Source of the DNA: Clostridia bacterium
Lineage (GTDB): Bacteria; Bacillota; Clostridia; Caldicoprobacterales; DTU083
Assembly: GCA_028696065.1 (NCBI GenBank)
Contig: JAQVHT010000007.1
Coordinates: 20,105 to 44,104 of the forward strand
Direction: 5' to 3'
DNA length: 24,000 nucleotides
In this document: one piece after another, positions 588 to 22,233 of the stretch
Numbering within the stretch: position 1 is the first letter of the stretch
How the letters are laid out: each line of letters starts with the position of its first letter
Translations under genes and position numbers: made by a program
The notes under the pieces: model-generated
The model's input: the letters and a program-made list of their open reading frames with translations, nothing else
Databases searched by the model: none
What the model was told of the DNA's origin: nothing

Positions 588-639
588 GCCATACAACCCC
601 CTCTATATCTTATGCTTGTTCAATTCATGCTTATAATGA

Positions 640-668
640 AATGTATGCTACTTGTTTACTTTTTATGA
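640..668 (-). promoter_or_regulatory. Sigma-E-type promoter upstream of spoIIM
   Basis: The minus strand reads TCATAAA (668..662), a 14-nt spacer, then CATACATT (647..640). This fits the B. subtilis sigma-E consensus (xxATAxx-N14-CATACAxT). spoIIM is sigma-E dependent in B. subtilis. Confidence 0.55.
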
Positions 669-722: not shown

Positions 723-1805
723 TTAAAATAAGCTATAAGCCTTTTTACAAGAGGCACCAATAGTATAAAAAAAACATGGGTCTTCAAGATAGGTCCTTCC
801 CATAGTCGTTATATCTGGACAATGCTTTTTGATAACCTCAATAATGTCAGTTCCGTCATATATAGAGAGCTTGACAAAAGGTAAGGCTCCGGCCTCCCTT
901 AGTTGACTTATAAAGAATCTTTCACTTTTAGCGTCTAGGTATGGTAAGGTGAAAAAGACAGGCCTATCTAGCATTTCACTAACCATAGTTAATGAATGAT
1001 GACTAACACCATAATGTCTAACCCTCTTGTCAGCAAAGCTTATTCTTGGTACAAATACACATTTACCTCCATGTTTTGATACAAGGTTGATATAAAACGC
1101 TAGCTCTAGCGCAGAAAAGCCGTATTTGCTATTGGTCCCAATAATTCCAGGGCCCATTGAAATAATAATTATATCACTTAATAAAGATGCTGTTTGTAGA
1201 CTTGTATAGATATTTACACACTCAAAATCAGCTCCAAATGCATTTCCCGATGATATAGTACAATCAAGCAGGCCTTTTTCTCTTACAGTCTGTACATTCT
1301 TAGAAAACCACATAGGTAGTGCTCCATGGTCAGTCATAATATAGGATAATTTAAGCTGTTTATCTGATAACTCCTTTAAATAAGCGCATATTGGAGGCAG
1401 CATACTATGTAGTTCAGAAAAAATAACAACTTTTTCGCCAAGCATAAGTGGTTTGTTAAAACAGTTTAAATTCCTCTCTGTATCCTCCTCAATGAACTGT
1501 ACCTGCACCTGCATAGGTGTATATTTTAACTTCATCCCATGTCCCTTAGCACTAAAAGCAGTTTCTCGATTAGCCAGGTTTGCTATAACAAAGTGAAAGC
1601 CTCCAGTACCTAATGATAAAGTGGCTGCACTGGTATTTAGGTATACAAAATCGCCTATCTTTATCTGACCTGTCATGTAATTATAGTTTATTGCCTTTTC
1701 AGCTTTATGATTAATATCAACTAATACTATAGATATGGCACTATTTTCATCTAGTATGCGGATTACCTTTCCGCTTTTTATTTCTATCATGGAGCAAGTA
1801 ATCAA
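723..1805 (-). CDS. Conserved protein of unknown function, DUF3866-like (360 aa)
   Basis: Intact 360-aa ORF, 4-nt overlap with the upstream gene, no TM segments. Length and general sequence character match my recollection of the DUF3866 family. The family assignment is from memory only. Confidence 0.45.
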   Translation of the reverse strand: MITCSMIEIKSGKVIRILDENSAISIVLVDINHKAEKAINYNYMTGQIKIGDFVYLNTSAATLSLGTGGFHFVIANLANRETAFSAKGHGMKLKYTPMQVQVQFIEEDTERNLNCFNKPLMLGEKVVIFSELHSMLPPICAYLKELSDKQLKLSYIMTDHGALPMWFSKNVQTVREKGLLDCTISSGNAFGADFECVNIYTSLQTASLLSDIIIISMGPGIIGTNSKYGFSALELAFYINLVSKHGGKCVFVPRISFADKRVRHYGVSHHSLTMVSEMLDRPVFFTLPYLDAKSERFFISQLREAGALPFVKLSIYDGTDIIEVIKKHCPDITTMGRTYLEDPCFFYTIGASCKKAYSLF

Positions 1806-2623
1806 TCCCTTCTACCTAGCCTATCAATTAATCTTAAGGATGGTAACCTGTCAATAATCTTAGAAATCGAATAACACTCTGCAAAAATGTGTATTAGTAT
1901 TTGAACTATAGCTAAAAAACCTTTTGCAGATAGTGGTAAATTCATCACTGTATAAAAGCCTAGACTAGCCCCTAGCAGGTTTGCGCCTGTGTCACCTAAC
2001 ATATAAAGCTCTTTCATTTCACCACCTATATATAAAATGAGGCTAACATAAATAGACAAAAACATTAAAGGTTCATGAAATTTTGCCATTAGTAAAAGTA
2101 AGGCTGAAGATAGAAAATAGGTCTTTATAGCCCTGCCTGGCCTTAGATCTAGGAGGTTTATATAGTTAACCGATAGACTAAAGACCAAGATATCAATAAA
2201 GAGTTCAATGAGCTTTGTATATTTAAAAAGGCTAACCATCATTCCTACTACAAGTCCTAATATAGCCTTAATTATCCCTGTTGAGAGCTGACCCTTAAAT
2301 AGTGCTTTTAGATGGCCAGCAAGCCCCTTTGTTGATACTTGTCCTAGGCTATCGTCTAGTAATCCAGTTAAAGCTAATATAATAAGGACAAGACAATAAA
2401 GTATATATATGAGTTTCTTGTTTAGCAAGAAAATGAATATTAGGCCAACCAGGCATGGTAATAGCAGTACAAAGCCAGCTCCATTTATCAGGTTTTTACC
2501 TCGATAGTTACTACTAAAAAGCCCTATACTAGTTAGGAAACTAAGTAGAGTTTTTTTACTCAATTTATAGGTTAAAGATACCAGCAAAATTAATAACAGG
2601 TACAAGGACATAGTTTTCATCAA
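1802..2623 (-). CDS. Divergent MraY/WecA-like (GT4 family) polytopic membrane protein
   Basis: 273 aa and strongly hydrophobic throughout. It carries LLDD, NYINLLDLRPGRA (in place of the canonical NxxNxxDGxDGL) and MLGDTGANLLG motifs, which resemble polyprenyl-phosphate sugar-phosphate transferases. Confidence 0.55.
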   Translation of the reverse strand: MMKTMSLYLLLILLVSLTYKLSKKTLLSFLTSIGLFSSNYRGKNLINGAGFVLLLPCLVGLIFIFLLNKKLIYILYCLVLIILALTGLLDDSLGQVSTKGLAGHLKALFKGQLSTGIIKAILGLVVGMMVSLFKYTKLIELFIDILVFSLSVNYINLLDLRPGRAIKTYFLSSALLLLMAKFHEPLMFLSIYVSLILYIGGEMKELYMLGDTGANLLGASLGFYTVMNLPLSAKGFLAIVQILIHIFAECYSISKIIDRLPSLRLIDRLGRRD

Positions 2624-2645
2624 ATAGTCTCCAAGTTTACATTAT

Positions 2646-3350
2646 TCAAAGTAGGCCAAATCTTTTTTGTATCATTTTAGATATAATGACCTTAGAAATA
2701 TCTTTAAATTGCTTACCCCTATGTAAAAATCCATAAAAGTCTCTGTATGTCACCCGATGTTCCATATCAAGCTCTATTTCTAATAACCTAGCCCCTGTTT
2801 TAAGTAAATCTACTGTCATGCCAAACTCTATACCAAATCCTGAATAATTAAAGTATTCTATTGATAGTATGCTTCGTTTAAAGGCTCTTTGGCCAGAAAG
2901 GACTGCCTTGATAGATCTACCTGTTAGAGCCTTAAGTCCCCAGTCAGCAAGTTTTCTTACAAGGCCAAAACCTCCTTTAATTGATGATTTATTAAATGCT
3001 GCAATCGCTACGTCAGCTTTATTGTAGCAAACTGGTCTACAAAGCTTTATAACTTCATTTGCACTTGAACCAAGGTCAGCATCTAGAAAGACTATAACAG
3101 GCGTTTTAGCTAATTCGAAGCCCTTTCTCATAGCGTATGCTTTACCTTGATTACTTTCGATTTTATAAAGGTTTACTCCTAAGCTTTTTGTTACTATTGA
3201 TGTATTATCTGTAGAACCATCATCTACTACTAGTATTGAGTCTATCTCTTTTAATGTTTTTAAAGATTTAAGTGTACTACCTATAGTTTTTTCCTCGTTA
3301 TAGGCCGGAATTATAATTGTAATTTCTAGCTTGTTAATACTCAGTTCCAT
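2646..3350 (-). CDS. Family 2 glycosyltransferase (polyprenol-phosphate glycosyltransferase-like)
   Basis: N-terminal IIIPAYNEEKTI, VVDDGSTDNT and FLDADL (DxD) motifs are typical of the GT-A fold GT2 family. 234 aa. Confidence 0.8.
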   Translation of the reverse strand: MELSINKLEITIIIPAYNEEKTIGSTLKSLKTLKEIDSILVVDDGSTDNTSIVTKSLGVNLYKIESNQGKAYAMRKGFELAKTPVIVFLDADLGSSANEVIKLCRPVCYNKADVAIAAFNKSSIKGGFGLVRKLADWGLKALTGRSIKAVLSGQRAFKRSILSIEYFNYSGFGIEFGMTVDLLKTGARLLEIELDMEHRVTYRDFYGFLHRGKQFKDISKVIISKMIQKRFGLL

Positions 3351-3362
3351 ATCCTCCGCTTA

Positions 3363-4247
3363 CTAGTCTGGTGTTTGGCTGCTATAGCTGGTCTCATCTT
3401 GTGTAACAAAGAGTCTTTCTGGTACTAATTCACTAGAATGTGGACCAGTCCCAAAATTGCCCTTGTTCCCCATCATAACTGAAACAAAGGCCATCCTTCC
3501 GTAAATAGTGTTTATATTATCAATTGTAGATATACCATAAGCTACATAATCCTCTATTGCACTATCTGCTATGCTATTTGATTCAACTAGGACTACATCT
3601 AAGCCAGTATTTTTGAGACTTTTTATTAAGATTGAGTCATGTTTAGAAGTAGTTTTACCTCCCCCTACAATTACCACTTTATCAACTGGGGATTCAAAAT
3701 TCAGTTCATTTTTCAGTACACCTAGCTCCTCCATTTCTGCAATTAAGGCTGTGTTTCCACCATAGTACAAGGAATATACTAAGTCCTCAATAACATAGTG
3801 GATTAAATCAAATCCATTTTCACTTGCATTTTCTGCTTTATCATAGAAAATACCAGTATAGCTACTTAAAGAAAATACTACACTTGTTTTTATAAAGGCT
3901 CCTGTATGTTCTAGTAGTTGCTTCACATATTCAATATCTAGTTCTTCATCAAAGCACACTAGGCCGACACTTGTACCTAATAATTGATTGTAGGAAACTT
4001 CTGTAACAAGTTTGTCAAAAACATCATATAAGACCTTGTTTTCTAATTCCATGGTCTTGATACTATCTTTTAAGCTCTCAGTCTCTGATCTATACAGTAA
4101 AATATTATCCTCTATTTGCTTTATCAAGGATGCCTGTTGGTCTTCGATAATATTTTTATTCTCAAGTGCAACACCTATCATTATTCCTAATCCTAATGCT
4201 AGGAAGATTGATACTATCAGATATATATAGTACTTTGAGTTAAACAT
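3363..4247 (-). CDS. MctB-like ('copper transporter' family) membrane-anchored protein
   Basis: Single N-terminal TM (YIYLIVSIFLALGLGIMIGVAL), then a coiled-coil-like segment and an alpha/beta domain. This architecture and N-terminus resemble the actinobacterial MctB family. The ORF track starts at GTG 4256. ATG at 4247, preceded by GGTGG, is the more likely start. Confidence 0.55.
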   Translation of the reverse strand: MFNSKYYIYLIVSIFLALGLGIMIGVALENKNIIEDQQASLIKQIEDNILLYRSETESLKDSIKTMELENKVLYDVFDKLVTEVSYNQLLGTSVGLVCFDEELDIEYVKQLLEHTGAFIKTSVVFSLSSYTGIFYDKAENASENGFDLIHYVIEDLVYSLYYGGNTALIAEMEELGVLKNELNFESPVDKVVIVGGGKTTSKHDSILIKSLKNTGLDVVLVESNSIADSAIEDYVAYGISTIDNINTIYGRMAFVSVMMGNKGNFGTGPHSSELVPERLFVTQDETSYSSQTPD

Positions 4248-4256
4248 ATACTCCAC

Positions 4257-5378
4257 CTATAGGCCAAAAATTAGCCTCAGCTTTAAGGCTATTAGTTGAT
4301 ATATTTTTTGTATCAGTGGTGACATTTTGGCTACTAGGGTTATAGGGAACAAGGCAGCTAAAAATAAAGCTATTAAGTGACTTGCCTTAATCCTGTTTTG
4401 ATATAGTTCGCTTACACCCTTTGCATTTACTATCTTGCTACCTACCTTCATCTGTACTAGAATAGTGCTAGCCATCCCCTTTCTACCTTTCTCCAAGAAA
4501 TCTATCATGCTGGTATGGCTACCTAAGGTAACTATAAGGTCAGCCTCACTTTCGTATGCTAACAGTAATGCAATATCCTCACTTGTACCTGGAAATGATA
4601 GCTTTTTTGCATTAAGACCTAAGTTATGTATCCGTTTAAGTCCAGGACAAGTACCATTAGGATAAGCATGTACTATAATTTCCTTACAAAGTCTAAGCGA
4701 CTTATCACTAACTGAATCCATGTCACCTACTATAATATCTGGTCTATAGCCAAACTCTAAAATAGCATCCGCTCCGCCATCTACTCCAATTACTACTGGC
4801 CTAACTTCTCTTAAATATGACTTTATAGCATTTAAGTCGCTCTTATAATTGCTACCTCTTGTAACTACTAGGACATGACGCCCCTTTATTTCTAGATTGA
4901 TTTTGGGTATTGGGAGCTTTCCTAATATATAATCCTTTTCCTTTGTGGCATATTCTAATGTATTATCAATAAAGTCGTTTAGGAGTTTGTCTAGGTTTTG
5001 CTTTGCCCTATTTGTTAACCTATCAATGCTTTCCCTTGTTAAAAATTGAATTTTCCCTAGTTGCCTTTTATTTATGTATAAAGTATCACTTTCTATTTCG
5101 ATTAAGTCGTTCTCCTTTATTTGCAGGAACCGTTCCTTTCCTATATTGTTAATAAGGGTTATTCCTGCATCAGAAAGCAGTTTTGGTCCCTTGTTAGGGT
5201 AATATCCATTTATAAATTCTGAACAGTTTATAACAGCACGTACCCTTTTTTCTATTAACTGATTAGCTGCAAGTTCATCAATATTTTCATGGTTTATTAC
5301 TGCTATGTCATTTTGCTTTAGCCGTCGTATCAAATTTTTTGTCTTGCTATCCTTCTTTGCATATCCCTTAATATACAT
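4257..5378 (-). CDS. steA: SteA-like protein (thiamine pyrophosphokinase-like domain, C-terminal TM)
   Basis: From M34 of the track ORF: MYIKGYAKKDSKTKNLIRRLKQNDIAVINHENIDELAANQLIE..., a GDMDS motif and a hydrophobic C-terminus. These resemble actinobacterial putative cytokinetic ring protein SteA. AGGAG lies 7 nt upstream of ATG 5378. The 33-aa N-terminal extension in the track has no SD. Confidence 0.6.
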   Translation of the reverse strand: MYIKGYAKKDSKTKNLIRRLKQNDIAVINHENIDELAANQLIEKRVRAVINCSEFINGYYPNKGPKLLSDAGITLINNIGKERFLQIKENDLIEIESDTLYINKRQLGKIQFLTRESIDRLTNRAKQNLDKLLNDFIDNTLEYATKEKDYILGKLPIPKINLEIKGRHVLVVTRGSNYKSDLNAIKSYLREVRPVVIGVDGGADAILEFGYRPDIIVGDMDSVSDKSLRLCKEIIVHAYPNGTCPGLKRIHNLGLNAKKLSFPGTSEDIALLLAYESEADLIVTLGSHTSMIDFLEKGRKGMASTILVQMKVGSKIVNAKGVSELYQNRIKASHLIALFLAALFPITLVAKMSPLIQKIYQLIALKLRLIFGL

Positions 5379-5465: not shown

Positions 5466-5513
5466 CTCACTATGCAAAAGCTCTGTTGCCTATTATGATA
5501 CTATTATAAATAT

Positions 5514-5537
5514 AAAAAAACTGCCCTAGAGCAGTTC
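5514..5537 (-). terminator. Weak second intrinsic terminator downstream of spo0A
   Basis: The minus-strand RNA reads AACUGC-UCUAGG-GCAGUU followed by UUUUUUA. The stem is only 6 bp. Confidence 0.4.
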
Positions 5538-5592
5538 CTTCAAAATACTATTAGTTTATATAAGTCGATTATGTAATAAAACCTGTTAAAAC

Positions 5593-5617
5593 AAAAAGTA
5601 GCTCTTGGCTACTTTTT
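5593..5617 (-). terminator. Intrinsic terminator of spo0A
   Basis: AAAAAGUAGC-loop-GCUACUUUUU hairpin 11 nt after the spo0A stop, followed on the minus strand by GUUUU. Confidence 0.7.
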
Positions 5618-14344: not shown

Positions 14345-14370
14345 ATTGCACTACTCTCCATATAAATATT

Positions 14371-14940
14371 TCCGATGACAATATGCTGAGTAAACTTTGC
14401 GGCTTAGGTCCAGTAGGTTTTCCCGATAAACTGCCCCTCGTCGCCGACGGGGTGGTTTCCCTTTAAAGTCTAACTTACTGTATCGCTAGCAGTAAAACTG
14501 GATCACCACTTAGTCCACACTGTAATCCTCAGCATACTATACCAGTCTAGGAGATTTCCTCAACAGTCATACCAAATTCTATCCTCTTTTGCAGGAAAGG
14601 TTTCAAACAACAATAGCAAACCGATAATGGATCCCTTACCCTTTTGCTCGATTTGTAATCCGCTCTCCCCCACTCAAGGCAGGCTACACTGTACACAGCT
14701 ATTAACCGCAATACAGGTTTAATCCCAAGTAGTAGTAGCTAACCACCTGCTTGGGTCTCCACGGAAGCTGGGTCAACGCCCGCATGCCATTGCGGATCGC
14801 CCTTCTTCCTTAACTCCCAGCACCGACTCCCGACTGGGCGTCAGGGGCCAGCACCAGAAACTTCATCGATATGCCCTTTAACGGATTTTTAGCCCCGTCT
14901 TCAAACTTGGTTGTACTGACTAGAATACTGTAGCATCGGA
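14371..14940 (-). ncRNA. ole: OLE (ornate, large, extremophilic) RNA
   Basis: (1) ~650-nt gap with no track ORF in any frame. (2) G+C is visibly higher than the flanks (by-eye estimate; single 60-nt lines range from 38% to 58%). (3) A terminal helix joins the two ends: 14934-14940 pairs with 14371-14377, and 14925-14931 pairs with 14378-14384. The second pairing includes a G-U wobble that exists only in the minus-strand transcript. (4) There are many internal hairpins, including a GCGA (GNRA) tetraloop stem at 14434-14452, CCCAAG...CUUGGG at 14724-14755, and CCGCA...UGCGG at 14780-14795. (5) The ispA | RNA | oapA | dxs synteny is characteristic of OLE. Confidence 0.8.
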
Positions 14941-14946
14941 GAAACT

Positions 14947-14975
14947 ATTATATCATAAATGAAAATACCTTTCAA
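14947..14975 (-). promoter_or_regulatory. Near-consensus sigma-A promoter directly upstream of the OLE RNA
   Basis: The minus strand reads TTGAAA (14975..14970), a 17-nt spacer, then TATAAT (14952..14947). The predicted TSS falls within a few nt of the 5' strand of the terminal helix at 14940. Confidence 0.6.
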
Positions 14976-18249: not shown

Positions 18250-19209
18250 TTATACATTACTTGTTTTGTAGATATTTAAACCAATTAAGGCAGTGCCTAA
18301 AGCATTATCCTTAGAAAGCTGTGGATCTGCAAAATATAAAGATAAGCCTTCATTTTTGATTCCAGAGTCAGCCCTTAAGCCCTCTCTTATTATCCTAGAA
18401 GATGATACTCCCCCAACTAAAAGAACATCCCTTGGGTATCCTTTCTTTACCGCATTAATCAGCCATTTTCCAAGAGTTTTAATTAAACTAATATAAACTC
18501 CTCTTGCTATTTTCCTGCTATCTAAGCCCTTGACTATTTGTCTTTGTATATGAGTCTCTGGTCCTGAAAAACTAATATTTAAGTCCTTTACATAGTACTT
18601 AATATCATAGCTTTCTAGTTCATTGTTTGCTAGTTCTTCTAAATGAGGCCCTGATGGAAAGGGAAGTCCTAGGGAAACGCCAATCCTATCTACAAACTGG
18701 CCAGCGTGTAAATCGAGGCTGGAGCCAATCATATCAATGTCAAAGCCATGATTATGGACTCTTACATCTAGTAGTTCAGTTGTACCACCTGATAGATGTA
18801 CAACAAGAAAATGCTTGGCTTTAAAACCACCTAGTCTATACAGGCCAGACATGATATGGTTTTCTTGGTGCGTACTTTCATAATATGGGACATTGTTTAT
18901 GTTTGCTATTACCTGTCCCAAACTTTGTGATAGAACAAATACAGGCATATAGGAATCCTTTTGGGGCCTCGGCTTTACGCTAGAACATACTGCTACTAAT
19001 TCTGGCTTATCAATTGTACTTTTTAGTTCGCTAGTAATTGAGGGTAGATTTTTCAAGTGGTTAAAGATAGCCTTTGATTGTTGTAGGCCTCTTGTCCCAT
19101 CTGCCAGCTCCAAAAGAACCTGCTTATTTAATAAGACCTCACCCTCTAAAGAAACACAAGCCAAAGAACTTGTATAGCAGCTTGTGTCAATACCTAAGAC
19201 ATATTTCAT
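18250..19209 (-). CDS. TsaD/Kae1-like ASKHA-fold protein (peptidase M22 family paralogue), function unknown
   Basis: 319 aa. GIDTSCYTSS (phosphate-1-like), HQENH (aligns with the TsaD HxxxH metal site), VVHLSGGTTELL and LLVGGVSSSRIIREGL motifs follow the TsaD order. ATGA overlap with the nusB stop. Confidence 0.6.
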   Translation of the reverse strand: MKYVLGIDTSCYTSSLACVSLEGEVLLNKQVLLELADGTRGLQQSKAIFNHLKNLPSITSELKSTIDKPELVAVCSSVKPRPQKDSYMPVFVLSQSLGQVIANINNVPYYESTHQENHIMSGLYRLGGFKAKHFLVVHLSGGTTELLDVRVHNHGFDIDMIGSSLDLHAGQFVDRIGVSLGLPFPSGPHLEELANNELESYDIKYYVKDLNISFSGPETHIQRQIVKGLDSRKIARGVYISLIKTLGKWLINAVKKGYPRDVLLVGGVSSSRIIREGLRADSGIKNEGLSLYFADPQLSKDNALGTALIGLNIYKTSNV

Positions 19210-21049: not shown

Positions 21050-21631
21050 TTATTTCCTTGGGAAGATCACTATGTTGTTAGTATCAAACTGAGACTCTCG
21101 TTTTACTATTTCTAGTATCTGTGCTAGCTCTTCAGTAGTTAACTCTTGCTTTTCTACAATTATATTAATATTGTTCTTATGCATAATAGCAATAACCTCA
21201 TTGAAGCCCTTGGCCTTTAATAGGTTCTCTATAACTGTTTCTGTCTCCATATTTGAAGCTAACTCTAGTAATTGGGCATGGGCTTCTTTTTCTATATCTG
21301 CATCTACTTCTTGGTCATTAATAACTGTATTTATATACTCTATCTCTTTGTTTCTGTTTTTTTCTCTTTCAAACCTGTAATCAACAAAGAAATTCGTTCC
21401 CGCTACTTCTTGGGAAGATTTTTCTGTACCAGTATTGCCTTCTGTATCTTTAACCTTTACACTACCCTCTATAGTATTGCTGGTTAATGGATCATCAACA
21501 CCTTTCTTTTTATTGTCAACCTGGTTGGCGTTTTTATTGTATATGAGATTGAGGTAGCCTGTTATTATCAAAAGCATGACTAGCAGGCCTATTATTATAC
21601 TTTTTTTCTTAATCATAAACATAAGATTCAC
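21050..21631 (-). CDS. spoIIIAH: Stage III sporulation protein AH
   Basis: 193 aa. N-terminal TM, an acidic linker, FFVDYRFEREKNRNKEIE and a C-terminal YscJ/FliF-like domain. It is the last gene of the spoIIIA order and overlaps AG by 4 nt. Confidence 0.85.
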   Translation of the reverse strand: MNLMFMIKKKSIIIGLLVMLLIITGYLNLIYNKNANQVDNKKKGVDDPLTSNTIEGSVKVKDTEGNTGTEKSSQEVAGTNFFVDYRFEREKNRNKEIEYINTVINDQEVDADIEKEAHAQLLELASNMETETVIENLLKAKGFNEVIAIMHKNNINIIVEKQELTTEELAQILEIVKRESQFDTNNIVIFPRK

Positions 21632-22233
21632 TCCTTTGTCCTCTTTGTCTCCATGGGAAAAACCTCAACTTGGTTTGCATTAATACCAAGTAGAGTTTGT
21701 ACAGCATTTTGTAACTCTAATCTGACCTTGATATCTTCTGCCCCTTCTGCCACTACTATTACACCTTGGATTTCAGGCTCAATTTCCTTTGTGATTAGGG
21801 CCTGGCTCCCTTGGGATGTTGACATACTAACAGGTTGAGAGTTGATATCGAGTTGCTTTGTTATTCTCTTACCCCCATTGTTGTCAGACTCCTCTGTCTG
21901 AGTGCTTGACTCTGTAGAGTTCATAGCTGGGACAATCTCTTTGCTAGACTTATAAGCGATCATTACTTCAACTGCACCCGCCCCCTTAATAGCTGACAGC
22001 AAGTCCTTTAAACGTTCTTCCTTGTTATAATCTATGCTTTGTTCTTGGCTTAACTTGCTGGGTTCAACATCTTGAACCTTAATACTAGCCTTGTCTTTGT
22101 TGCTAGTAAAAATATTTCCGACCATACTTAATACTATAGCTATGGCCAAAATCAAAATAAAATACTCAATATGCTTTACATTTTTAATCTTTTCATATAT
22201 TGATTTTAAACTAGTTTTCTCCATAATAACCAA
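21628..22233 (-). CDS. spoIIIAG: Stage III sporulation protein AG
   Basis: 201 aa. N-terminal TM and the C-terminal GVIVVAEGAEDIKVRLELQNAVQTLLGINANQVEVFPM, characteristic of SpoIIIAG. Confidence 0.88.
   Translation of the reverse strand: MVIMEKTSLKSIYEKIKNVKHIEYFILILAIAIVLSMVGNIFTSNKDKASIKVQDVEPSKLSQEQSIDYNKEERLKDLLSAIKGAGAVEVMIAYKSSKEIVPAMNSTESSTQTEESDNNGGKRITKQLDINSQPVSMSTSQGSQALITKEIEPEIQGVIVVAEGAEDIKVRLELQNAVQTLLGINANQVEVFPMETKRTKE

Follow-up and report, generated by a model that had tools for sequence, protein, structure and literature searches.

What is the function of five tightly packed genes that lie between the sporulation genes spo0A and spoIIM? We considered this question for a stretch of 24,000 nucleotides (nt) from a Clostridia bacterium (contig JAQVHT010000007.1 of GenBank assembly GCA_028696065.1), hereafter called the window, in which the five genes occupy positions 723-5378 of the minus strand. 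A first reading of this DNA (hereafter the original prediction) had assigned their products to the SteA, MctB, GT2, GT4, and DUF3866 families, all five of which assignments proved right, and had suggested an envelope or septum role, with a tie to sporulation read from the position of the genes. We find that the first two genes encode, as identified by homology, orthologues of the actinobacterial SteAB complex, and that in two phyla steAB is constantly accompanied by the fourth gene, which encodes an MraY-like membrane protein; this partnership is newly described here. On balance, we lean slightly towards reading the five genes as a single cell-envelope and cell-separation module, expressed in vegetative cells, that would couple sugar chemistry on a lipid carrier to SteAB, and not as a sporulation device.

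The cluster consists of five co-directional minus-strand open reading frames (ORFs) at 5477/5378..4257, 4256..3363, 3350..2646, 2623..1802, and 1805..723 of the window. Start codons were chosen from ribosome-binding sites, homologue alignments, and database proteins, which gave the following map of the cluster and its borders, in the direction of transcription:

6449-5628, minus strand: spo0A, flanking the cluster upstream
5513..5617, minus strand: a pair of intrinsic terminators that close the spo0A transcript and bound the cluster upstream
4257..5378, minus strand: steA, 373 amino acids (aa), a cytoplasmic, nucleotide-binding thiamine pyrophosphokinase (TPK)-like domain with GDMDS and a C-terminal transmembrane (TM) helix; ribosome-binding site AGGAG before ATG 5378
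3363..4247, minus strand: steB (MctB family, PF11382), starting at ATG 4247, with GTG 4256 as an alternative start
2646..3350, minus strand: GT2, starting at ATG 3350, 234 aa, a soluble GT-A glycosyltransferase (PF00535)
1802..2620, minus strand: the MraY-like gene, starting at ATG 2620, 272 aa, a membrane protein with a predicted MraY/WecA fold
723..1790, minus strand: DUF3866, starting at ATG 1790, 355 aa, a soluble two-domain protein (PF12982)
From near 593 and continuing past the window edge, minus strand: spoIIM, flanking the cluster downstream

With these starts, the intergenic gaps measure 9, 12, 25, and 11 nt from steA to DUF3866. Five co-directional genes, short gaps, and no internal terminators support a single tight operon-like unit, as had been proposed, while the 0-nt gap and 4-nt overlap given at the same time do not stand: both arise only from the longest ORFs, the overlap only with TTG 1805 taken as the start of DUF3866. 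The flanking genes are spo0A and spoIIM as claimed, and the two terminators placed after spo0A are real, with hairpins of -13.5 kcal/mol (z = -4.3) and -13.3 kcal/mol (z = -3.7 against shuffled sequences) and a U run after each. A further hairpin at the end of steA (4291-4272) was rejected as a terminator, being no better than shuffled sequence (z = -1.5), and we found no convincing terminator within the cluster or between DUF3866 and spoIIM. Nor was there a consensus sigma-70 promoter between the terminators and steA or, according to Rfam, any RNA element in or beside the cluster. By eye, a sigma-E-like candidate promoter can be picked out upstream of spoIIM, in the 130-nt gap that separates it from DUF3866 (window ~635-664, minus strand; 'TCATAaa', 14-nt spacer, 'CATACATT'); since no terminator stands ahead of this candidate, read-through from the cluster into spoIIM is possible.

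The assignment of the first two genes to the SteAB complex draws on family models, solved structures, and conserved motifs. SteA of the window matches the NCBIfam model NF040608 (putative cytokinetic ring protein) over model positions 1-368 of 369, with 499.5 bits against a cut-off of 150 (E = 5.1e-150), and contains the domains PF04263 (TPK-like, 3.1e-8) and PF12555 (SteA-like_C, 3.8e-13). Its residues 5-327 align with the solved SteA core (PDB 9hmy, E = 4.5e-59), and the motifs GDMDS, DGG, and GTSxD are at least 95% conserved among 104 sequences. These TPK-type motifs being invariant, SteA may also have an enzymatic role. For SteB, whose identity among Clostridia is only 20-40%, the match to PF11382 reaches 75.2 bits against a gathering cut-off of 25.6 (E = 9.5e-21). 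As a single sequence, the window protein reached only E = 0.72; a profile of 24 Clostridial orthologues (A3) retrieved the solved SteB structures 8au6 (Cg1604, 1e-13), 9m9z (MctB, 3.8e-12), and 9hle (3.3e-11), and these matches cover both halves of the ectodomain. The protein has a TM helix at its N-terminus, a stretch that corresponds to the coiled coil of the solved SteB structures, and an alpha/beta domain outside the cytoplasm.

In Actinobacteria, the SteAB complex is located at the division site, where it places a peptidoglycan endopeptidase for the separation of daughter cells (PMC12977500). Specifically, the two M. tuberculosis proteins assemble into a TM heterotetramer, in which SteB binds the coiled coil of the RipA endopeptidase and positions RipA for septal hydrolysis (PMC12977500). 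The conserved TPK/CstII-like pocket of SteA is predicted to bind carbohydrate, and C. glutamicum SteA is stabilised by guanosine and uridine diphosphate (GDP and UDP), the physiological ligand being unknown (PMC12977500). The location of steAB downstream of spo0A in Clostridia has been noted, and a sporulation role suggested (PMC12977500, mBio 2026); glycosyltransferases, MraY, DUF3866, and pyrG are not mentioned in PMC12977500. Within the window, no candidate wall hydrolase partner for SteB is encoded.

The fourth gene product had been called a divergent GT4, which is correct in the sense of Pfam Glycos_transf_4, i.e., the MraY/WecA superfamily, and wrong in the sense of CAZy GT4. Single-sequence searches with the window protein were empty (no Pfam or NCBIfam hit at E ≤ 0.01 and no PDB hit), so that the relationship to MraY is visible only through the family profile and structure prediction; many of its homologues carry PF00953 in precomputed annotation. 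When its AlphaFold2 model (pLDDT 92.3, pTM 0.89) was searched with Foldseek, hits 1-33 were all MraY or DPAGT1, with a probability of 1.00 and TM-scores of 0.54-0.67. The family profile matches MraY at E = 7.6e-4 and lines up DD, NxxNLxD, and GDxG(S/A)N with GFVDDY, NAVNLTD, and FMGDVGS, and the residues D90, D91, N153, N156, D159, and D211 are at least 95% conserved across 138 family members from two phyla. Other parts of the protein depart from the canonical enzymes. The DGxDGL segment of MraY/WecA, which forms the uridine pocket in MraY-inhibitor structures, is replaced by an invariant DLRPGR (motif NxxNLLDLRPGR), and the C-terminal HHH/loop-E region is not alignable to MraY. The protein is also short: at ~270 aa, it lacks about 100 residues relative to canonical enzymes (320-380 aa), and in an exhaustive search with the family profile, which returned 1,714 clusters at 50% identity with E ≤ 1e-30, the 150 best were all 240-313 aa long. 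Taken together, the structural model and the profile place the fourth gene product in a distinct subfamily of the MraY/WecA phosphosugar-transferase superfamily, and its conserved residues suggest an active phosphotransferase that would act on polyprenyl phosphate with non-canonical donor recognition. Rare variants of the NLLDLRPGR motif, i.e., NLLDRRPSR and NLLDCRPSR, occur in two loci (L116:6902-7789 and L150:6878-7723), the first of which has GT2 and the MraY-like gene with no steAB within 6 kb upstream.

The third gene encodes a glycosyltransferase that matches PF00535 (7.1e-26) and scores under every NCBIfam equivalog cut-off. Its family profile (A4) has as best PDB matches the Pyrococcus Dol-P-Man synthase (DPMS; 5mlz, 5.2e-20), GtrB (6e-19), and GpgS (7e-18), followed by ArnC, and its DADL motif aligns with the DxD (DADLQ) of DPMS. 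The matches to DPMS, GtrB, and ArnC end where the catalytic domain ends; reading the 234-aa sequence by eye, with no TM predictor, we saw no long hydrophobic segment suited to a TM helix. The family has its own invariant C-terminal motif, H..R...GF.HRG.QF. The only membrane domain found attached to GT2 is an MraY-like one: on metagenome contig Ga0172368_10001308 (L155:6125-7810, plus strand), a single 561-aa ORF fuses GT2 (ORF residues 22-241) to a DLRPGR-type MraY-like domain (290-576). This fusion has no steAB within 6 kb upstream and is followed by a small P-loop ATPase. Where the two genes are separate, the median gap between them is -5 nt in the genome loci described below, and GT2 would be translationally coupled to the MraY-like gene. 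The polyprenyl-phosphate-linked sugar step that had been proposed is the natural reading of these two transferases. Searched by single sequence, GT2 had GpgS as its best PDB match, which prompted a possible link to the glyceric-acid-containing lipoteichoic acid (LTA) of C. difficile; we dropped this link because the family profile prefers DPMS and GtrB, because the module ranges far beyond the organisms in which that LTA would be expected, and because the cluster genes go unmentioned in papers on the LTA and glycolipids of C. difficile.

Co-conservation of the five genes, whose absence the original prediction had named among its grounds for refutation, was found to be high. Among 80 genome loci that were fetched by the DUF3866 profile and annotated with phmmer and hidden Markov models of the window proteins, 66 were informative, i.e., had at least 4.5 kb upstream, and 58 of these 66 carried SteA-SteB-GT2-MraY-like-DUF3866 in the same order and on the same strand, an arrangement far beyond chance. 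Median gaps between successive genes in the genome loci were 9, -2, -5, and 10 nt. The reverse anchor, a scan of metagenomes with the MraY-like profile, yielded 39 loci in which 3.2 kb or more was available upstream. SteA and SteB lay directly upstream of the MraY-like gene in 37 of them, across two phyla, and DUF3866 was detected within 5-7 kb downstream in 23 of 34, which makes SteA-SteB-MraY-like the constant core and DUF3866 the loosest member. An additional gene, encoding a ~230-aa P-loop ATPase (GSGKTE ... DLDxxNPYF; L037:4431-5129, L155:8216-8887, L060, L062, L063), adjoins the MraY-like gene or precedes a 2-oxoacid:ferredoxin oxidoreductase-M20-DUF3866 group; found in six loci only, it was not counted as a member of the module. 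One locus labelled Thermoanaerobacteraceae (L077) has a sodium-dependent transporter-like gene inserted before DUF3866.

DUF3866 itself is a clear member of its family (PF12982, 348.5 bits against a cut-off of 25, E = 4.8e-104, model positions 1-317 of 318), with 46 residues at least 95% conserved among 112 sequences. Its AlphaFold2 model (pLDDT 89.7) combines an N-terminal beta-barrel with a Rossmann-like core, for which the best PDB folds in Foldseek were weak matches to SIMIBI-class nucleoside triphosphatases (NTPases; TM-score ≤ 0.33). A PDB sequence search gave chance-level matches only, and the protein has no Walker A motif; with structural matches this weak and the motif absent, we did not call it an NTPase. 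It is probably an accessory cytoplasmic protein, and an enzyme, that is more loosely attached to the module. Across loci, DUF3866 tracks with an M20 peptidase and with a NUDIX hydrolase acting on nucleoside diphosphate (NDP)-sugars. An M20/M28-family peptidase gene lies directly upstream of DUF3866 in 25 of 112 loci (including L161:10521-11624 and L163:8836-10008), a pairing seen in Solirubrobacterales, Thermacetogenium, Syntrophomonadaceae, and Desulfotomaculia-type contigs and absent from the window. Similarly, a NUDIX hydrolase of the NDP-sugar pyrophosphatase type (PF28549 and PF00293) follows DUF3866 in 62 of the 80 genome loci, e.g., L163:11138-11692 and C. difficile, and is missing between DUF3866 and spoIIM in the window.

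The cluster also has a counterpart in a well-studied pathogen. On the C. difficile chromosome (L038), Spo0A is followed by ORFs of 373, 291, 230, 274, and 355 aa, whose products are 50, 25, 46, 39, and 41% identical to the window proteins and whose sizes are those listed for strain R20291 in Table 2 of PMC12157513. The window cluster is the orthologue of C. difficile cdr20291_1053-1057, described as a pyrophosphokinase (373 aa), an exported protein (291 aa), a GT2 (230 aa), a glycosyl transferase (274 aa), and DUF3866 (355 aa) (PMC12157513). These genes were reported essential in 2025 from two transposon sequencing (Tn-seq) studies and CRISPR interference (CRISPRi), and have no essential B. 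subtilis orthologue; CRISPRi of cdr20291_1053-1056 caused strong viability defects and chaining, short, swollen, phase-bright cells (PMC12157513). This knockdown phenotype and the biology of actinobacterial SteAB back the envelope or septum role of the original prediction (PMC12977500, PMC12157513), whose statement that none of the genes has an assigned role in Firmicutes is in part outdated, the C. difficile orthologues being essential. Literature searches for the older tags CD1215-CD1219 and CD630_12150/12160 found nothing relevant. The cluster is thus already known as an essential unknown, and neither its SteAB and MraY-like identity nor the cross-phylum core was found in the literature searched.

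How might such a module operate? Under the cell-separation reading, we infer the following mechanism. The MraY-like protein would take a phospho-sugar (or a similar phospho-group) from a donor activated by a nucleotide and load it onto polyprenyl phosphate on the inner side of the membrane, and GT2 would dock on the MraY-like protein, adding or supplying a second sugar. The nucleotide product or substrate of these reactions (uridine monophosphate (UMP), UDP, GDP, or an NDP-sugar) would be what the SteA pocket reads or uses. Through the TM bundle of SteA and SteB, the state of the lipid-carrier pathway would then be coupled to the wall hydrolase held by SteB.

A bolder reading, which we regard as possible though doubtful, is that SteA, SteB, and the DLRPGR-type MraY-like protein are an ancient machine of Clostridia and Actinomycetota that ties the undecaprenyl-phosphate cycle to septal wall hydrolysis. 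Here the MraY-like enzyme, aided by GT2, would make or consume an unknown lipid-linked phospho-sugar, SteA would either sense the nucleotide that is released or act itself as a third transferase of the pathway, and the state of SteA would determine whether the hydrolase held by SteB cuts the septum. In this reading, Mycobacteriales would have a reduced form without the enzyme partners, the full form of Clostridia being essential.

Several observations weigh against a cell-separation module of five genes. Both Tn-seq and CRISPRi are polar (PMC12157513), so a shared phenotype is no proof of shared function. Membership of the module varies: DUF3866 is absent within 5-7 kb downstream in 11 of the 34 MraY-like-anchored loci and occurs without the other four genes within 10 kb in L026, L062, L071, and L075, SteB is absent in L069, L077, and L097 where SteA-GT2-MraY-like-DUF3866 are contiguous, and GT2 is missing in Solirubrobacterales. 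The fusion with GT2 was seen on one metagenomic contig, and among the 150 best representatives of the MraY-like family, none was long enough to be another. In neither the 24-kb window nor the annotated loci L161 and L163 did we find a flippase or ABC exporter, a polymerase, or an LCP or other ligase, and no extracytoplasmic glycosyltransferase that could use a lipid-linked product is present. Finally, the region as a whole belongs to an old synteny block whose housekeeping genes are unrelated to one another (tlyA, nadK, recN, pyrG, NUDIX, xerD), which makes adjacency weak evidence.

This last point leads to the alternative that survives best, i.e., that the genes are neighbors by inherited synteny only, with steAB a cell-separation pair and the GT2/MraY-like and DUF3866 genes unrelated housekeeping functions. 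Upstream of the window cluster lie spoIIIAE-AH, two Asp23 genes, nusB, folD, xseA, ispA, the OLE RNA, dxs, tlyA, nadK, argR, recN, spoIVB, and spo0A, and the common arrangement over a longer stretch is RecN-SpoIVB-Spo0A-[five genes]-NUDIX-SpoIIM-XerD, with DUF3866-NUDIX-SpoIIM-XerD in 42 loci. In Thermacetogenium phaeum, the order reads NADK-ArgR-RecN-SpoIVB-Spo0A-SteA-MctB-GT2-PF00953-M20-DUF3866-NUDIX-...-SpoIIM-...-XerD. A set of high-GC soil contigs carries RecN-SteA-SteB-MraY-like-PyrG-(M20)-DUF3866-(NUDIX)-XerD, with no GT2, Spo0A, or SpoIIM, and their MraY-like proteins are named Solirubrobacterales at NCBI (Actinomycetota, class Thermoleophilia). Independent gene calls and Pfam annotation of a Solirubrobacterales metagenome-assembled genome (MAG; L161) gave FtsJ/TlyA-NAD kinase-MFS-hypothetical protein-RecN-SteA-MctB-278-aa protein-PyrG-M20-DUF3866-XerD. 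Two other loci (L050 and L118) combine the five genes with pyrG and no sporulation genes, and their PyrG is labelled Actinomycetota; these labels are NCBI MAG names only and unverified, and the 'Actinomycetota' label of L037 is doubtful, genuine Spo0A and SpoIIM being present there, so that the actinobacterial claim rests mainly on Solirubrobacterales. The CTP synthase gene pyrG sits between the MraY-like gene and DUF3866 in L050 (7260-8870), L118 (7680-9383), L111, L151, and L161, which are Solirubrobacterales contigs or contigs labelled Actinomycetota; this resembles M. tuberculosis, where the order is recN-Rv1697-Rv1698-pyrG-NUDIX-xerD (steA-steB-pyrG).

A common tlyA-nadK-(argR)-recN ... 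(pyrG) ... NUDIX-(spoIIM)-xerD backbone in the window, Thermacetogenium, and Solirubrobacterales is what inherited synteny would leave behind, as are the unrelated insertions inside the cluster (pyrG, 2-oxoacid:ferredoxin oxidoreductase, M20 peptidase, transporter) and the loss or separation of DUF3866 and of SteB in some loci. It accounts less readily for gaps of ~10 nt or less, or overlaps, with no internal terminators, for an MraY-like gene that follows steAB immediately in 37 of 39 loci from two phyla with differing surroundings, or for the fact that each of the five C. difficile genes belongs to the essential set and that a single phenotype is reported for them. We therefore consider mere inherited adjacency unlikely.

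A second alternative makes the cluster the initiation module of an ordinary secondary wall polymer (teichoic-acid-like or an S-layer glycan; cf. TagO/TagA and WecA/WecG), with steAB as a passenger. Wall-polymer pathways typically open with a polyprenyl-phosphate phosphosugar transferase, which is followed by a glycosyltransferase, the JGI names homologues of the MraY-like protein 'UDP-GlcNAc:undecaprenyl-phosphate GlcNAc-1-phosphate transferase', and swollen, chaining cells fit wall-polymer depletion. Against this stand the enzymes themselves: neither transferase has an NCBIfam equivalog hit, the uridine-binding DGxDGL loop of MraY/WecA is replaced, and the MraY-like protein has ~270 aa where canonical enzymes have 320-380 aa. 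In the loci examined, moreover, neither the cluster nor its immediate surroundings contain a gene for a flippase/ABC exporter, a polymerase, an LCP ligase, or a GT26 enzyme, and the module occurs in both Clostridia and Thermoleophilia, which would not be expected to share one wall polymer. Such a polymer pathway thus seems to us quite improbable.

As for sporulation, the cluster is retained where the sporulation genes are not. In two Peptostreptococcus loci (L027 and L032) and in L010, RecN adjoins SteA directly and spoIVB, spo0A, and spoIIM are absent. Sporulation genes have been interleaved into an ancestral tlyA-nadK-recN ... NUDIX-xerD housekeeping block, and the position of the cluster is inherited, not functional. 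The sporulation inference that had been drawn from position accordingly fails (L027, L032, L161). A sporulation-septum or engulfment glycoconjugate system, for which the place of the cluster between spo0A and spoIIM in the window and most Clostridial loci and the sporulation role suggested for SteAB in PMC12977500 might speak, is very unlikely indeed, as the C. difficile orthologues are essential for vegetative growth and give vegetative morphology defects, the cluster is kept without spoIVB, spo0A, and spoIIM in L027, L032, and L010 and in the Actinomycetota loci L161, L050, and L118, and two strong terminators part it from spo0A.

Returning to the cell-separation module, its interest lies in what it adds to SteAB, a newly characterised cell-separation regulator of M. 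tuberculosis that was thought to be largely restricted to Actinobacteria. Outside Mycobacteriales, steAB is accompanied by a divergent MraY-like enzyme, to which Clostridia add GT2 and DUF3866. The nucleotides and nucleotide-sugars of lipid-carrier reactions would offer a concrete, testable source for the SteA ligand. Two separate literatures, that on SteAB-RipA and that on the C. difficile essential unknowns cdr20291_1053-1057, are thereby connected. The module is also a plausible narrow-spectrum antibiotic target, since it is essential in C. difficile, B. subtilis-type models lack it, and one of its members is a membrane enzyme of druggable fold.

The remainder of the window, whose G+C content is ~35%, holds further features of note. 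A full-length OLE (Ornate Large Extremophilic) RNA lies at 14359-14952 on the minus strand (RF01071, 506.8 bits, model positions 1-616 of 616), flanked on one side by a gene for an ispA-like polyprenyl synthetase (15893-15000) and on the other by a 191-aa ORF (14344-13769) that has no Pfam hit and is probably oapA, which is followed by dxs. Between nusB and folD, a 319-aa protein (18250-19209, minus strand) shows only a partial TsaD-family match (5e-18), and between spoIIIAF and spoIIIAH, a 201-aa ORF with no Pfam hit (21628-22233, minus strand) is positionally spoIIIAG. The nearest database proteins are 98-99% identical and come from Logan assemblies only, which indicates a poorly sampled source organism; after these, the next best DUF3866 is 61% identical and belongs to a 'Bacillota bacterium' MAG.

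Set beside known systems, the parts of the module each have recognisable relatives. With the PNPT superfamily (MraY/WecA/TagO/DPAGT1, PF00953), the MraY-like protein has in common the predicted fold and the invariant DD, NxxNxxD, and GDxG motifs, whereas its gene adjoins steAB and not wall-polymer or dcw genes. GT2 has the GT-A catalytic domain with DxD of DPMS, GtrB, and ArnC but no C-terminal TM or interface helices, and it is ~90 residues shorter than GpgS, a soluble glucosyl-3-phosphoglycerate synthase. The FtsEX-hydrolase systems (FtsEX-RipC, FtsEX-CwlO, and FtsEX-PcsB) resemble SteAB only in how they work, in that a cytoplasmic nucleotide-binding part controls an extracytoplasmic hydrolase via a TM bundle; SteAB has no sequence or fold relationship to them and no ABC ATPase, and the ligand of SteA is not ATP (PMC12977500). 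The C. difficile locus cdr20291_1053-1057 has the same five genes in the same order and position after spo0A, but differs from the window in the NUDIX gene that follows DUF3866 there, and PMC12157513 draws no link from it to SteAB or MraY. The system closest to the first two genes is actinobacterial SteAB-RipA (M. tuberculosis Rv1697/Rv1698 and C. glutamicum Cg1603/Cg1604; PMC6705760, PMC12977500). Unlike it, the window steAB sits with GT2, MraY-like, and DUF3866 genes, none of which is mentioned in the SteAB literature, and the C. difficile orthologues are essential whereas Corynebacterium steAB knock-outs are viable. In both, the same two families are adjacent, in the same order, and just downstream of recN, and the window SteA keeps the conserved TPK-like motifs of its actinobacterial counterpart.

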